From positions 102,865-126,864 of the forward strand of contig JASGCO010000010.1 of NCBI GenBank assembly GCA_030054095.1: a DNA stretch of 24,000 nucleotides, given 5' to 3'. Under the pieces are notes generated by a model. It had not been told where the DNA came from and searched no databases. It saw only the letters and a program-made list of their open reading frames with translations. Of the stretch, positions 13,738-24,000 are shown in pieces. How positions within the stretch are numbered: position 1 is the first letter of the stretch; every line of letters begins with the position of its first letter. This DNA is from Sediminibacterium sp. Lineage in GTDB: Bacteria; Bacteroidota; Bacteroidia; B-17B0; Aurantibacillaceae. The translations under genes and the position numbers were made by a program.

Positions 13738-14292
13738 TTACCCTTCTTTACCCGGTATCTCCCAGAAAGACTGGTACAAGAGAAATAACTCCGTAATGTT
13801 TCTGGCATCATCAATGCCTCGGTGATGCGTTCCTTTTAGTTCGAGGCCCTCTAAACGGAGCGCACTATCCATGCCCAATGGTTTCCGCAACGATCTTAGT
13901 TCGGCATGTTGATGTTTCAGGCTAATGTGAGGTGTCACCCATCCGGTGTCGAGTTGATGAAGGGTACAATCGGCAATGAGTTGATGCTTGTCATAATGGC
14001 CCCAACTGCATAGAACATACGTTTCGGATAGATTGATCCATTGTTGGAAAGCCTGAATGACTTCGGGAAATGTTTCTGCCTCATCCACCTGTTTTTGTTT
14101 TATGCTGGTGAGTTGCCTGCAAAAATCAGACAGTACCGGATAAAGGGATGGCTTTACAAAACGCGCGAATTCATCGGTAACAATACCATCTTCATTCACC
14201 TTGAGCGCGCCAATTTCAATAATTTCGTTTTTTTGGTTCGGATCTTTTTGCTCCCAACAGGTTGCTTCCAGATCAAGGATAATATAATTCAT
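13738..14292 (-). CDS. DEDDh-family 3'-5' exonuclease (ERI-1/KapD-like)
   Basis: 184 aa. Exo I DLEAT, Exo II SWGHYD, Exo III HRGIDDA (H-x4-D). Confidence 0.8.
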   Translation of the reverse strand: MNYIILDLEATCWEQKDPNQKNEIIEIGALKVNEDGIVTDEFARFVKPSLYPVLSDFCRQLTSIKQKQVDEAETFPEVIQAFQQWINLSETYVLCSWGHYDKHQLIADCTLHQLDTGWVTPHISLKHQHAELRSLRKPLGMDSALRLEGLELKGTHHRGIDDARNITELFLLYQSFWEIPGKEG

Positions 14293-14309
14293 AGTATCTA
14301 TTTTAGTGA

Positions 14310-14669
14310 TTATAGCGATTTTGTGGTGTTCAGATAGTCGGCCTGAATCGCTTTCCCAAAAATAGTATGTGTCCAGCCATTTTCAAAACCATGGTTGTTC
14401 GCTATCAGATACCCTTTATCGGGATCTGTTTTTACGATCTTATGCGCGTCAATATAACGTCCTTTTACTTTGCAGAAAACGATATCACCGATACTATAAT
14501 CTGCCTGCCTGGCAAATGTGAGTAACGATCCGCTTTTGAGTATAGGTAACATGGAGTTTCCAAAGCATTTCATTTTACCGTTCCCGACAGTTTCCAGTTC
14601 TTCTTTAAGTCTTAAATATTTATTCATTGTTTTATTGTTTTCAGAACGGTTATGAGTTGATCGTTTCAA
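14310..14669 (-). CDS. S24/S26-family peptidase-like small protein
   Basis: GNSMLP serine motif and downstream AHKIV lysine, as in LexA/signal-peptidase-type Ser-Lys dyads. The start is uncertain; the alternative ATG at 14627 gives MNKYLRL. Confidence 0.55.
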   Translation of the reverse strand: MKRSTHNRSENNKTMNKYLRLKEELETVGNGKMKCFGNSMLPILKSGSLLTFARQADYSIGDIVFCKVKGRYIDAHKIVKTDPDKGYLIANNHGFENGWTHTIFGKAIQADYLNTTKSL

Positions 14670-14688
14670 AACAGTTCGTAATTATTTG

Positions 14689-14760
14689 AGCCGGCAGCAG
14701 GATTCGAACCTGCAACCTATCGCTTACAAGGCGATTGCTCTGCCATTGAGCTATGCCGGC
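14689..14760 (-). tRNA. tRNA-Thr (anticodon TGT)
   Basis: Minus-strand read GCCGGCA-TA-GCTC-AATGGCA-GAGC-A-ATCGC-CTTGTAA-GCGAT-AGGTT-GCAGG-TTCGAAT-CCTGC-TGCCGGC-T. Canonical cloverleaf, no encoded CCA. Confidence 0.9.
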
Positions 14761-14765
14761 CTACG

Positions 14766-14801
14766 GCCTCCCTGCTCTTTTTTGTCGGTTGCGAGGGAGG
14801 C
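14766..14801 (-). terminator. 8-bp GC-rich hairpin between the SPFH gene stop and tRNA-Thr (possible terminator or processing hairpin)
   Basis: GCCTCCCT(14766-14773)/AGGGAGGC(14794-14801). No clear U-tract on the minus strand. Confidence 0.35.
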
Positions 14802-14808
14802 TTTCGGG

Positions 14809-22779: not shown

Positions 22780-22783
22780 AGTG

Positions 22784-22856
22784 TGCCTTCTATAGGATTC
22801 GAACCTATACAATCTTGTTTCTAAGACAAGCGCCTATACCGTTCGGCTAAGAAGGC
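22784..22856 (-). tRNA. tRNA with Leu anticodon TAG and a 5-nt variable region (class I-like)
   Basis: GCCTTCT-TA-GCC-GAACGGTATA-GGC-G-CTTGT-CTTAGAA-ACAAG-ATTGT-ATAGG-TTCGAAT-CCTAT-AGAAGGC-A. Confidence 0.6.
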
Positions 22857-22860
22857 ATGG

Positions 22861-22932
22861 TTGTCGGAAATGGATTCGAACCACTGTTTTCAGACTCAAA
22901 CTCTGACGTCCTGCCAGTTAGACGATCCGACA
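22861..22932 (-). tRNA. tRNA-Gln (anticodon TTG)
   Basis: TGTCGGA-TC-GTCT-AACTGGCAG-GAC-G-TCAGA-GTTTGAG-TCTGA-AAAC-AGTGG-TTCGAAT-CCATT-TCCGACA-A. Has the U1:A72 pair typical of bacterial Gln. G32 and G38 are unusual. Confidence 0.75.
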
Positions 22933-22944
22933 ATAGAATAGTAA

Positions 22945-22975
22945 GCCCGGTGCATAATGAGACCGGGCCTTTTTT
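22945..22975. terminator. 7-bp GC hairpin between the RNA ligase stop and the first tRNA of the array
   Basis: GCCCGGT(22945-22951)/ACCGGGC(22962-22968). The T6 run is on the plus side and an A-run lies upstream on the minus side, so it is at best a weak or bidirectional terminator for the minus-strand ligase gene. Confidence 0.4.
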
Positions 22976-22998
22976 AAAAGGAAGAAAGCGATCTCTGT

Positions 22999-24000
22999 TT
23001 ACTCGTCGTATTTGATCAGGAATTCAGGATTGATAACCTTAAAGGATAAACGTCCCTGCATCCCATATTTATCAGTTATTTCATCGAGTGGACGAATAAC
23101 AACACCTTCCGCGAGGGTCTCAGCGTTTAACGCAGAATGTAATTTTGATAAATTCATCAACACATCTATGTCATGATCCAGTTCGTAATGTTCATTTACA
23201 ATGGGAACCAGTTTCAGGTGTAATGCGTTCAGTAAGGATTTTACATCGCCGAACGAAAAGTAACAGTAACGGTCAATATCAAATACATTGAAAAAGTAAA
23301 CCGTTTGACCTTTTAGTCTGTACTTGTTTTTTTGTATGCCCTCGCCAATGATTTCACCTTGTAAACTGATGTTTTTATTTAATGCCAACAGTTTATTTTC
23401 CAAGTCATTTTCGATAGCAAATTGCCACATCGAATTTTCTTCATCGCGTTCCAGTTCCAGGTTTCGTGAACAAACACCGAAAATGCCATCTTTAACAAAG
23501 TAGGTAACCGAACTGCCATCCAGTTTTTCAGCTACGTAACATACAGTACCAGCAGAACGTTGTAGAATGTTTTGCAATACCTGAACTCTGGTCTCATCTG
23601 TTTTAGGAATGAATGAAGGAAAATTTCCTTTTGCCACACCTGCCAGATTAGCCGGAATAGGAGGTTCGTATTTTTCAATACCAAGAACCACTGTTACATC
23701 TAAATCTTCTTCAATAGCAATCCCTTCTGGCAGAATGGATATTGGGAGACAAATACCTTGCGAAATCTGACCGCGCAAACGTATGGTTTTGATACGATTG
23801 CTGCGGGCACGGATACTTGAGAACTCCGGACGGTCAGGCAGTATGCTGTCTATCTCGCAGTACACACACCAGTCGCCAATAGTAAACTCATCTTTGCGGA
23901 TTACCAGTTGCCAGCCCAATACAGTAGCTTTTGCAATGGCATCAGCTCCTTCAATTGGCTCAATGTCTTTTATTTTTTGTATAGACGCTAATTTTCTCAT
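22999..24000 (-). CDS. ATP-dependent RNA ligase, DraRnl/Rnl5-like (N-terminal OB fold plus nucleotidyltransferase domain)
   Basis: 333 aa. The ATG is exactly at the window edge (23998-24000). N-terminal MRKLASIQKI..IEGADAI..GWQLV is like the DraRnl OB module. Motif I lysine in EKLDGSS (K159, codon 23524-23526). Confidence 0.75.
   Translation of the reverse strand: MRKLASIQKIKDIEPIEGADAIAKATVLGWQLVIRKDEFTIGDWCVYCEIDSILPDRPEFSSIRARSNRIKTIRLRGQISQGICLPISILPEGIAIEEDLDVTVVLGIEKYEPPIPANLAGVAKGNFPSFIPKTDETRVQVLQNILQRSAGTVCYVAEKLDGSSVTYFVKDGIFGVCSRNLELERDEENSMWQFAIENDLENKLLALNKNISLQGEIIGEGIQKNKYRLKGQTVYFFNVFDIDRYCYFSFGDVKSLLNALHLKLVPIVNEHYELDHDIDVLMNLSKLHSALNAETLAEGVVIRPLDEITDKYGMQGRLSFKVINPEFLIKYDE

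Follow-up and report, generated by a model that had tools for sequence, protein, structure and literature searches.

A Bacteroidota island of Ro60, Y-like RNAs, tRNA genes and an Rnl5-type ligase as a probable composite RNA-damage-response locus

We analysed a stretch of 24,000 nucleotides (nt), the window in what follows, from Sediminibacterium sp. (assembly GCA_030054095.1, contig JASGCO010000010.1, positions 102,865-126,864), in which positions 13738-24000 form an island around rsr, the gene for an ortholog of the RNA-binding protein Ro60. The island represents one version of a locus family that is widespread in Bacteroidota and rests on a WYL transcription regulator, rsr and an array of Y RNAs, a kind of system that was predicted earlier by comparative genomics. 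We put the probability that it is a real, modular and composite RNA-damage-response island, combining repair with quality control, at roughly 0.6; most likely it would be damage-induced, with an accessory unit that gives nick sealing and replacement tRNAs. A first-pass annotation of the same DNA had proposed a module of Ro60, Y-like RNAs, spare or decoy tRNAs, an RNA ligase and an exonuclease under WYL control. That interpretation is partly supported here, and its inventory was borne out by ARAGORN, Rfam and Pfam in content, order and strand, all listed elements lying on the minus strand of 13738-24000 and the WYL gene being divergent from rsr.

The window belongs to a 43-kb metagenome contig, of which 21.5 kb make up the source locus, L001. 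Two samples served for comparison: an rsr-centred one of 80 related genome loci from many Bacteroidota genera (counts out of 81 refer to all rsr loci), and one centred on the RNA ligase Rnl5, of 80 metagenome and 25 viral loci (105 in total). When the open reading frames (ORFs) neighbouring rsr in the 81 loci were grouped by clustering and Pfam, the genes that most commonly follow it were found to encode RNA-repair enzymes, so that the rsr locus family is an RNA-repair system with interchangeable enzymes, as the first-pass annotation had supposed of its setting. After the Y array we found RtcB in 50 of the 81 loci, TatD in 17, RlaP (the 'RNA repair pathway' nucleotidyltransferase) in 13 and 12 as two clusters, the Pnkp kinase-phosphatase in 8, an Rnl1-like ligase in 6 and Hen1 in 4.

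The particular combination found in the window also recurs. One relative, L006, repeats the full order of Rnl5, tRNA array, WYL, rsr, tRNAs, SPFH, S24 and DEDDh genes, and about 4 kb beyond these genes it also has Pnkp and an Rnl1-like ligase. Among Rnl5 homologs with flanks long enough for a judgement, the closest four (L082, L084, L085 and L092; 66-71% identity) are all followed by tRNA arrays, and Rnl5 stands beside an array of at least four tRNAs in 10 loci (L082, L084, L085, L086, L092, L099, L150, L152, L154, L157), most of which, together with a few others, also hold Rsr, WYL, SPFH, RlaP or RtcB. When the conserved neighbours of Rnl5 are ranked, RtcB and Rsr come out on top, followed by WYL and RlaP, with the non-repair PcfJ-like and RNaseH-like proteins ranking in between. 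Rnl5, a divergent WYL gene and SPFH occur together without rsr in L085, L154 and L157, of which L154 adds a 12-tRNA array, two RlaP genes and a DEDD exoribonuclease, and L157 a tRNA array. The combination of array, Rnl5, WYL, SPFH and DEDD exonuclease is therefore a recurrent module, even in loci that lack rsr, and Rsr and SPFH would be alternative or additive scaffolds.

The rsr gene and the RNA elements downstream of it are the following:

18180-19697, minus strand: rsr, Ro60 ortholog of 505 amino acids (aa) with TROVE and vWA domains (Pfam)
17951-18141, minus strand: tRNA-like RNA 'A', 190 nt (comparative fold)
17044-17898, minus strand: Y-RNA-like array of seven modules, M1 to M7 (motif scan, module sequences, folds; each module below by motif and fold)
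17898-17776, minus strand: M1, of a second conserved class
17756-17651, minus strand: M2, T arm only
17649-17579, minus strand: M3, short hairpin
17564-17423, minus strand: M4, YrlA-type permuted tRNA domain (T arm, acceptor hairpin, D arm)
17416-17265, minus strand: M5, YrlA-type permuted tRNA domain (T arm, acceptor hairpin, D arm)
17180-17117, minus strand: M6, short hairpin
17112-17044, minus strand: M7, short hairpin

Ro60 proteins bind misfolded RNA, and Y RNA tethers a 3'-5' exoribonuclease to them in Deinococcus, Salmonella and a Thermus phage. The tether of Ro60, Y RNA and exoribonuclease has been described in PMC4201824 and PMC12135203. In the window protein the TROVE domain (PF05731) scores 107.8 bits and the vWA domain (PF25045) 25.1 bits, just under its cutoff of 27.7, and the MIDAS motif DVSGS (DxSxS) is invariant in 13 homologs. 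We found 5868 homologs at E<=1e-20; the best among the matches listed are 505 aa long and 66-71% identical, and those with a named source come from Bacteroidota. The NCBIfam equivalog for the RNA-binding protein Rsr (NF041674) gave 28 bits against a cutoff of 900, and the window Rsr is best assigned to a divergent Bacteroidota lineage and not to the proteobacterial and Deinococcus equivalog.

As is characteristic of Ro60 loci, Y RNA genes lie on the same strand within a few kb of rsr: the seven modules fall within about 0.3-1.2 kb downstream of it, and nearly all 80 relatives are alike in this. A scan with the motif GYCGU-N9-11-(U/A)ACUUC returned 7 copies in the window, all on the rsr strand and inside about 0.85 kb downstream of rsr, and this signature occurs 3-9 times directly downstream of rsr in almost all 80 related loci, with a single opposite-strand match in all 81. 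Each copy forms the 5' strand of a self-contained module with a common plan, in which an outer stem closes the 5' and 3' ends, an internal loop carries (U)GYCGU(A), and a second stem and a single-stranded UACUUC precede a variable 'effector' domain. For 19 modules of the T-arm/acceptor-hairpin/D-arm kind (type A) from 16 loci, RNAalifold recovered every expected helix, with compensatory changes in 20 of 30 pairs. M4 and M5 fit the architecture of YrlA, namely a closing stem, a bulged protein-binding region and a permuted tRNA domain. At gathering thresholds Rfam reported 12 tRNAs and no Y RNA in the window; its YrlA family (RF02553) has a gathering score of 69 bits, and the best matches reached 40.6, 40.0, 28.1 and 26.1 bits, so the structure of the modules was established by comparison. 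In place of the YrlA CGAA motif (GNCGAAN0-1G; PMC4201824, PMC12135203), the modules carry (U)GYCGU(A/U), and the UACUUC that lies 10 nt past it is invariant. We read CGUA as a lineage-specific variant of CGAA and the modules as candidate Rsr ligands.

Between rsr and the Y modules lies tRNA-like RNA A. Its acceptor stem is 7 bp long and comes with a D arm, an anticodon-like hairpin whose loop counts 13 nt, a structured insertion of about 110 nt where the variable arm would be, and a T arm. Seven loci (L001, L009, L020, L027, L038, L084, L085) conserve this RNA, and its acceptor and anticodon-like stems covary among them. What had been noted as at least five tRNA mimics can thus be resolved into seven Y modules, two of them with a full YrlA-type domain, RNA A, and a tandem RNA linked to the SPFH gene. 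As a side observation, ARAGORN names some Y modules as tRNAs for Leu, Lys or Glu (L024 11810-11877; L032 11886-11956 and 13108-13175; L071 11605-11673), so automated annotation of such loci will hold false tRNA genes.

The second half of the island is a ligase and tRNA unit, listed here with the other tRNA genes:

22999-24000, minus strand: Rnl5-type (DraRnl/NgrRnl) ATP-dependent nick-sealing RNA ligase, 333 aa (Pfam, NCBIfam, structure match)
21818-22932, minus strand: array of nine tRNAs, 5' to 3' Gln-UUG, Leu-UAG, Leu-UAA, Pro-UGG, Phe-GAA, Arg-ACG, His-GUG, Ile-UAU, Arg-ACG (ARAGORN, Rfam)
22783-22856 and 22704-22779, minus strand: short-arm tRNA-Leu genes of 74 and 76 nt, class I shape (cloverleaf drawings)
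22610-22698, minus strand: degenerate, class-II-shaped tRNA-Ser(GCU)-like element in an array gap, overlooked by ARAGORN and Rfam
22434-22507, minus strand: tRNA-Phe(GAA), no canonical T loop (UGCAACU) and no G18G19
22050-22199, minus strand: degenerate element derived from tRNA-Ser(UGA) in the other array gap, its anticodon/variable region enlarged by about 65-90 inserted nt (alignment to L006 tRNA-Ser-UGA)
21092-21178, minus strand: tRNA-Tyr(GUA), class II, CCA encoded (ARAGORN, cloverleaf drawing)
17188-17261, minus strand: tRNA-Lys(UUU), inside the Y-module array between M5 and M6 (ARAGORN)
14688-14760, minus strand: tRNA-Thr(UGU) (ARAGORN, Rfam)

The ligase has the Rnl5 architecture of an OB domain (PF21189, the PHA02142-type N-terminal OB domain, residues 4-87) and a nucleotidyltransferase domain (PF09414, residues 155-323), with no C-terminal domain beyond these. 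It scores 189.4 bits against the NCBIfam model TIGR02306 'RNA_lig_DRB0094' (cutoff 151.15), matches the structure of the Naegleria gruberi ligase NgrRnl over its full length (5COT, E=1e-63), and its motif I, KLDGSS, which holds the KxDG lysine, aligns with KLDGSS of NgrRnl. Because the family cutoff is passed and the end-to-end alignment conserves motif I, we assign the window ligase to the DraRnl/NgrRnl (Rnl5) family as a true member. Neither the window nor L001 holds RtcB, RlaP, Pnkp, Rnl1 or Hen1. The earlier idea that Rnl5 takes the place of RtcB thus suits the window, and it does not extend to the wider sample, where six Rnl5 loci carry RtcB too. Two further Rnl5 loci, L090 and L156, have rsr with only scattered tRNAs, and on one viral contig (L195) Rnl5, tRNAs, Y modules and Rsr stand together. 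PcfJ-like and RNaseH_like homologs recur beside Rnl5 in 5-6 loci, and in L154 the segment 2615-5662, between the tRNA array and Rnl5, encodes an RNaseH_like protein (PF04308), a PcfJ-like protein and an AAA ATPase.

ARAGORN and Rfam each found 12 tRNAs, all on the minus strand between 14688 and 22932. With its single orientation, spacers of 1-7 nt inside blocks and patchy distribution, the nine-tRNA array has the hallmarks of an L-array (PMC8421152), and it stays below the size of a tRNA array unit (at least 20 tRNA genes at 2 or more per kb; PMC4758250), with 12 tRNAs in 10 kb, 9 of them within 1.1 kb. The tRNAs are atypical in several respects, as the first-pass annotation had remarked and as cloverleaves and comparison across loci agree. 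Both tRNA-Leu have variable loops of 5-6 nt while retaining the 3-bp D stem of class II tRNAs. To our knowledge, bacterial tRNA-Leu otherwise always has a long variable arm, and a canonical 85-nt Leu-CAA is seen elsewhere in L008. Such short tRNA-Leu (74-76 nt; UAG, UAA, CAG) are present in L006, L011, L017, L029, L042 and L187 as well as in the window, and they recur both in rsr-linked arrays and in a 23-tRNA viral array. In addition to its defects in the T and D loops, tRNA-Phe(GAA) has G37 in place of the bacterial A37 (window, L012, L017, L042); tRNA-Pro has a D loop without GG, the first Arg-ACG is a degenerate duplicate of the second with mismatched stems, tRNA-Ile has the rare UAU anticodon, and CCA is encoded in Gln and Tyr only. 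At the same time canonical features are kept, including the encoded G-1 of His, U1-A72 of Gln, C1-G72 of Pro, A73 of Leu and the class II form of Tyr. The Ser(GCU)-like element has an 8-bp acceptor-like stem, a five-arm minimum-free-energy fold of -34 kcal/mol and a weak alignment to tRNA-Ser-GCU of L017. The Ser(UGA)-derived element aligns to L006 tRNA-Ser-UGA at both ends, through acceptor and D arm on the 5' side and through T arm and acceptor on the 3' side; its insert folds as two hairpins and may represent an intron-like insertion or one more tRNA mimic.

Homologous array tRNAs are shared by loci with Rsr proteins of only about 67% identity (Gln in L001, L013 and L017; Ile-UAU in L001, L012, L013 and L017). 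Arrays of at least three same-strand tRNAs within 5 kb of rsr occur in 8 of the 80 relatives and are absent from the other 72, L020 having the same protein set and no tRNAs, and where present they lie upstream of rsr, between WYL and rsr, or downstream. Since several array tRNAs are atypical and arrays are patchily distributed, the array tRNAs are probably supernumerary. The tRNA linked most tightly to rsr is tRNA-Lys(UUU), found within 1.5 kb downstream, just past the Y modules, in 6 other loci. On viral contigs Rsr homologs are often set in large tRNA arrays (L188, L192, L197, L225, L231-L236), in some cases together with Rnl5 or RtcB, and in L192 (14840-19273) Y-module signatures are scattered among 30 tRNAs. 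The overlap between the window isoacceptors and the targets of anticodon nucleases, to which attention had been drawn before, does not discriminate, as larger related arrays span nearly all amino acids. Separately, Flavobacterium loci hold clusters of odd tRNA-like repeats 7-9 kb downstream of rsr, such as AGGATGGTAGTTTAATTGGAAAAA... and AAGGTGTTAGCTCAATTGGAAGAGC..., at L015 18307-18547, L037 18741-19043, L051 18619-20358 and L056 20088-20634; they have unusual anticodon loops, and ARAGORN names them Gly-ACC, Cys-ACA, Trp, Ser and Ala.

The regulator and the sites upstream of it and of the RNA genes are as follows:

19936-20955, plus strand: WYL-WCX transcription regulator, 339 aa, divergent from rsr (PF13280 44.5 bits, PF25583 46.5 bits, both above cutoff)
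19754-19772, no strand assigned: operator-like site 1, TGCGCAGTGGTATTGCGTA, 57-75 nt 5' of the rsr start codon
19867-19885, no strand assigned: operator-like site 2, TGCGCAGATAGATTGCGCA, 51-69 nt 5' of the WYL start codon
22586-22598, minus strand: conserved box GTTCTTTTATATA, directly 5' of tRNA-Pro (read from sequence)
17947-17932 and 17036-17021, minus strand: copies of the conserved box 5' of Y module M1 and of the SPFH RNA (read from sequence)

A WYL homolog is divergent from rsr in 70 of the 80 relatives. The closest solved relative of the window protein is PafBC, a weak match, and Pfam gave no match for residues 1-150, where an N-terminal helix-turn-helix would be placed. The intergenic region between rsr and the WYL gene spans 238 bp and holds the two sites of the form TGCGCA-N7-TGCG(C/T)A. 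Operator-like sites are conserved in the divergent region across about 65 loci, in most of which the strict pattern lies at about -60 to -105 and about -200 from the rsr start, and that pattern gave 2 matches in 1.18 Mb of control DNA (the Rnl5-centred loci). Variants occur in L085 (TACGCA-N7-TGCGTA) and L154 (GTGCAA-N5-TTGCAC), and in several loci the pattern is also found before downstream repair genes. Control of rsr and of the WYL gene itself by the WYL protein is a well-supported inference, with binding to these sites predicted, and control of the co-oriented downstream RNAs is plausible. In Flavobacterium (L015, L016, L018, L022, L023 and others) a third copy of the operator at +1531 from the rsr start, about 16 nt past the stop codon and ahead of the Y array, suggests that the array has a regulated promoter of its own. 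Mainly in Flavobacterium as well, 20 loci encode a conserved protein of 204 aa in the interval from rsr to the WYL gene (for example L037 9264-9878, minus strand), for which Pfam gave no match.

The conserved boxes share the consensus GTTCTTT(T/G)A.A.ATA, and related boxes precede RNA genes in L006, L020, L085 and L154. They are probably a promoter or a processing signal; a comparison with the Bacteroidota -33/-7 promoter gave no convincing fit.

The remaining protein genes and the RNA associated with SPFH are these:

14809-16332, minus strand: SPFH/Band-7 protein, 507 aa (PF01145, 106 bits)
about 16695-17020, minus strand: SPFH-associated tandem tRNA-like RNA of about 330 nt (two YrlA-like matches, 40 bits each)
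14310-14669, minus strand: small protein with an S24 (LexA/signal-peptidase-like) serine peptidase domain (PF00717, 29 bits; GNSMLP motif)
13738-14292, minus strand: DEDDh 3'-5' exonuclease, ERI1/KapD type, 184 aa (PF00929)
21245-21763, minus strand: small TPR protein, 172 aa (Pfam TPR families)

The SPFH domain occupies residues 277-448, and in its N-terminal part the protein carries four additional copies of a 'G..H/Y.FWK' hairpin motif. No membrane segment is obvious from its sequence, and it has homologs in L006, L020, L085, L154 and L157. The RNA preceding its gene consists of two permuted T-arm/hairpin/D-arm units 63 nt apart, behind the box at 17036-17021, and is conserved 5' of the SPFH gene in L006, L020, L085 and L154, the last two being without rsr. 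An SPFH protein with a cognate tRNA-like RNA in an RNA-repair locus, with RlaP, Rnl5 and DEDD among the neighbours in the loci compared, is what reportedly defines an SPFH/Band-7 repair scaffold. The interval 16333-16695 (minus strand), about 360 nt between this RNA and the SPFH start, holds more hairpins that align poorly to L006 and L020 and may be a leader or an extra RNA. The exonuclease has as its best solved relatives the ERI1 (3'hExo) 3'-5' exoribonucleases (E=5e-20), and its best NCBIfam match is the KapD model. The S24 protein likely starts at 14627, giving 105 aa, and ORF clustering placed homologs close to rsr in 6 further loci, which makes 7 when the window is counted. A homolog of the TPR protein with 41% identity follows Rnl5 in L092 (tblastn). 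Two ORFs, at 16480-16965 (plus strand, 161 aa) and 17474-17737 (minus strand, 87 aa), were rejected as genes and are probably spurious: they have no Pfam match and overlap conserved RNAs. No other locus has a homolog of the 161-aa ORF, and one of the two is called a gene on the source contig.

We hypothesise that these parts work together as follows. The WYL regulator would bind both operators seen in the divergent promoter and control its own gene and rsr, and its ligand, if other WYL regulators are a guide, could be nucleic acid that has been damaged, for example single-stranded DNA or RNA fragments. Rsr would then be produced with seven Y-like RNAs that share a common Rsr-binding stem and differ in their effector domains (two full tRNA mimics, one T-arm-only domain and four others), and each could, on the model of Deinococcus and Salmonella, tether the Ro60 ring to a different partner. 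The ERI1-like 3'-5' exoribonuclease is a plausible partner that could trim or degrade damaged structured RNA. The SPFH protein, presumably cytoplasmic, and its tandem tRNA-like RNA may form a second scaffold, one that, judging from co-occurrence, can replace Rsr in related islands. Upstream and separate from these, Rnl5 would seal 3'-OH/5'-phosphate nicks in base-paired RNA, for instance in nicked tRNAs, and the 9-11 divergent tRNAs linked to it, with tRNA-Tyr, -Lys and -Thr, could sustain translation when the normal tRNAs are cleaved or depleted. Signals of this type have precedents, since RtcR senses tRNA fragments (PMC7790460) and WYL and CARF factors have been predicted to be RNA-fragment sensors that regulate RNA repair (PMC9503650, PMC4012209).

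Several findings weigh against such an integrated island. No further operator was found with up to 2 mismatches in all 21.5 kb of L001, including the DNA upstream of Rnl5, the array, the TPR gene and the internal RNA genes; a single operator-like match inside the Rnl5 coding region was taken as a probable chance match. Moreover, the unit of Rnl5, array, TPR and tRNA-Tyr lies on the far side of the WYL gene and its transcription would run towards that gene. The proposal of WYL control therefore stands for the intergenic operators between rsr and WYL; for the ligase and tRNA unit it is unsupported, and because no operator lies upstream of this unit, co-regulation of the two halves is unproven. 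Co-occurrence of ligase, rsr, WYL and arrays, the comparison by which the first-pass annotation was to be judged, holds in the sub-family around L006, the closest Rnl5 homologs, L154 and L157, and is rare across the family as a whole, where Rnl5 is found in 2 of 81 rsr loci (the window and L006), the trio of SPFH, S24 and DEDDh in 3 of 81 (the window, L006 and L020), and arrays at the frequency given above. Among metagenomic Rnl5 loci with at least 3 kb on both sides, 17 of 25 are without RNA-repair or tRNA context (33 of 41 when viral contigs are included), and such context is missing around viral Rnl5 homologs of 61% identity. The tRNA complement is known from the 43-kb contig only, and redundancy with housekeeping copies is probable on the character of the array tRNAs and otherwise presumed. 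Finally, DraRnl and NgrRnl seal 3'-OH/5'-phosphate nicks in duplexes and, by their established biochemistry, do not join the 2',3'-cyclic-phosphate and 5'-OH ends that classical anticodon nucleases leave, and no end-healing enzyme (kinase or phosphatase) is encoded in the window. Rnl5 would instead suit nicks made by metal-dependent nucleases or nicked tRNAs that are still base-paired (PMC10159003), or else would rely on host enzymes.

A bolder version of the same idea, which we regard as speculative and less likely than not, would make the island a self-contained kit against attack on tRNAs by competitors or phage-defence systems. Here the WYL protein would be the sensor, Ro60 with up to nine Y RNAs and the SPFH scaffold would steer the ERI1-like exonuclease and Rnl5 to damaged tRNAs, and redesigned tRNAs would evade the toxins and sustain translation, namely tRNA-Leu without the long variable arm, tRNA-Phe with G37, and tRNA-Ile-UAU, which by decoding rules reads AUA without lysidine. 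If this were true, the island would be a cellular counterpart of phage tRNA-plus-ligase counter-defence, and many Y-RNA effector domains would gain their first defined partners.

The strongest competitor to the reading as an RNA-damage-response island, still an improbable one, holds that the tRNA array and Rnl5 are an independent, phage-derived mobile cassette (an 'L-array' with an anti-defence role) that landed by rsr, tRNA genes and tRNA-like Y RNAs being hot spots of recombination or integration, and has no functional tie to Rsr, SPFH or WYL. The patchiness of the arrays (8 of 80), their variable position relative to rsr and the lack of a WYL operator before the Rnl5 unit would all fit, as would the short-arm tRNA-Leu shared with the 23-tRNA viral array and the large arrays that accompany Rsr in viral contigs; published arrays are likewise treated as horizontally transferred (PMC8421152, PMC12803027). 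Against it, the association recurs at 50-70% protein identity, also in rsr-less islands with WYL, SPFH, RlaP and DEDD, and tRNA-Lys and tRNA-Thr are interleaved with Y modules and protein genes on the rsr side. Nor were repeat boundaries or an integrase seen in the 21.5-kb locus. The island DNA as such is ordinary chromosome and not phage. It is flanked by a MacAB-type efflux operon and metabolic genes; window positions 1-13736 code for a GNAT protein, a radical-SAM SPL-like protein, an SDR, HlyD, an ABC ATPase and three MacB/FtsX permeases, and the other flank of the source contig carries ordinary genes too. With such flanks, no integrase or phage genes in the 21.5 kb and a similar GC content across the locus, a prophage or integrative element was ruled out.

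It is less likely still that the atypical tRNAs and mimics serve mainly as decoys that titrate tRNA-targeting nucleases or other tRNA-binding toxins. Several elements are unfit to work as normal tRNAs, given the Phe without T-loop and elbow nucleotides, the Arg with mismatched stems, the Ser-like insertions and the 13-nt loop of RNA A, and YrlA was raised by Hughes et al. as a possible competitive inhibitor of anticodon nuclease (PMC7790460). Most array tRNAs, however, have intact cloverleaves and the identity elements of His, Leu, Gln and Pro, which favours aminoacylation, and the Y modules keep the conserved protein-binding stem typical of Ro60 ligands.

We also doubt that the island is primarily a DNA-damage module, in which WYL would sense single-stranded DNA like PafBC and DriD, UV or oxidative damage would call Rsr, Rnl5 and the exonuclease into action, and the tRNAs would be incidental. 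In its favour, the closest solved relative of the regulator is PafBC (weakly), the S24 domain resembles those of LexA and UmuD, DraRnl is the product of a radiation-induced gene, and Rsr helps Deinococcus to survive UV. Salmonella rsr-rtcBA is also induced by DNA damage, but there the signal works through tRNA cleavage (PMC7790460), so the views of DNA damage and RNA repair are not exclusive. On the other hand, every enzyme family repeatedly tied to the locus family acts on RNA ends, and the exonuclease is ERI1-like, not DnaQ-like. Finally, that the array tRNAs are ordinary housekeeping copies clustered by chance is very improbable, for although their anticodons are mostly the common one-per-amino-acid set and the genome is seen through 43 kb only, Leu has no long variable arm, one Arg copy is degenerate, as is Phe, Arg-ACG occurs twice, arrays are missing from 72 of 80 relatives (L020 among them), and they are homologous across distant hosts and a viral array.

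Compared with known systems, the reading as an RNA-damage-response island finds its closest model in the Salmonella rsr-yrlBA-rtcBA operon, where a Ro60 ortholog is likewise followed by same-strand, tRNA-mimicking Y RNAs with a linked RNA ligase (Chen et al. 2013/2014; Hughes et al. 2020, PMC7790460) and a ligand-sensing transcription factor is the regulator; RtcB itself is the usual ligase in the relatives of the window. The two differ in that a WYL protein with TGCGCA-N7-TGCGYA operators stands in place of the sigma-54 activator RtcR, which sets the island apart from rtc-type operons, and in that the window is devoid of RtcB and RtcA, has seven Y modules where Salmonella has two, with CGUA replacing CGAA, and adds tRNA genes, SPFH, S24 and the ERI1-like exonuclease. 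An SPFH gene also sits in the Pseudomonas rtc locus (PMC13086221). The ligase, the scaffolds with their cognate RNAs (Y RNAs and tRNA-like RNA), RlaP and the shuffling and displacement of components across the 81 and 105 loci resemble a further model. In the abstract of their 2016 paper, Burroughs and Aravind reportedly described modular RNA-repair systems with Ro/TROVE and SPFH/Band-7 scaffolds and cognate RNAs, and a supernumerary tRNA array is said to lie outside the 'syntax' given there. Passages in PMC7824862 and PMC9503650 cite this work (Burroughs & Aravind 2016, NAR 44:8525) for such RNA-repair systems.

Cyanobacterial L-arrays (Santamaria-Gomez et al. 2021, PMC8421152) are comparable as horizontally spread, same-orientation extra tRNAs linked to RNA ligase or RNA-processing genes, and a cyanobacterial array linked to rtcB and co-induced with it under translational stress was proposed to be a stress-induced alternative tRNA set (PMC8421152). 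They reach up to 43 genes against 9-12 here, and their regulator and direct-repeat operator differ from WYL and TGCGCA-N7-TGCGYA; the array described here sits in a Ro60/SPFH island and has Rnl5 as its ligase. Phage tRNAs and ligases counter anticodon nucleases (PMC10264068, PMC7824862), jumbo phages carry RNA-repair sets with ROT/TROVE (PMC7824862), and mycobacterial tRNA array units are putative anti-defence elements (PMC12803027). The window shares with phage counter-defence (T4 Rnl1/Pnkp against PrrC; resistant phage tRNAs) the pairing of replacement tRNAs with an RNA ligase, sometimes with Ro60; unlike it, the window is chromosomal and has a dedicated WYL regulator, no phage genes and no Pnkp-type healing enzyme. 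The ligase itself agrees with DraRnl and NgrRnl in domain architecture and motif I and passes the DRB0094 cutoff. We know of no report of the characterised members in a tRNA-array, Ro60 or SPFH setting.

The suggestion that this combination had not been described therefore holds only in part: its general logic is published, in the rsr-Y-rtcBA operon, TROVE/SPFH modules, rtcB-linked arrays and anti-nuclease arrays, whereas the recurrent linkage of Rnl5 with tRNA arrays inside WYL-Rsr/SPFH islands appears, as far as we have checked, to be new. To the same extent, the multi-module Y arrays of Bacteroidota with their GYCGU...UACUUC signature, overlooked by Rfam, the TGCGCA-N7-TGCGYA operator and the short-arm tRNA-Leu appear new. 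Little is settled about the roles of bacterial Ro60 and Y RNA beyond the PNPase tether in Deinococcus and Salmonella, and this locus family, with its many Y effector domains, dedicated exonuclease, swappable ligases and simple operator, makes partners and inducing signal testable in culturable Flavobacterium, Pedobacter and Chitinophaga. The linkage of Rnl5 with tRNA arrays suggests that supernumerary arrays, whose role is debated between codon supply, anti-defence and stress tRNA sets, belong to RNA-damage responses, and the short-arm tRNA-Leu and other altered tRNAs are natural experiments in tRNA identity and nuclease resistance.

Just past window position 24000, L001 has a non-coding stretch of 1.3 kb (4385-5697) 5' of the Rnl5 gene, which may hold small RNA genes. 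Terminator-like hairpins lie in it at about 5353-5378, 5520-5550 and 5648-5676, and it is preceded by a 51-aa, Lys/Ala-rich, histone-H1-like ORF.

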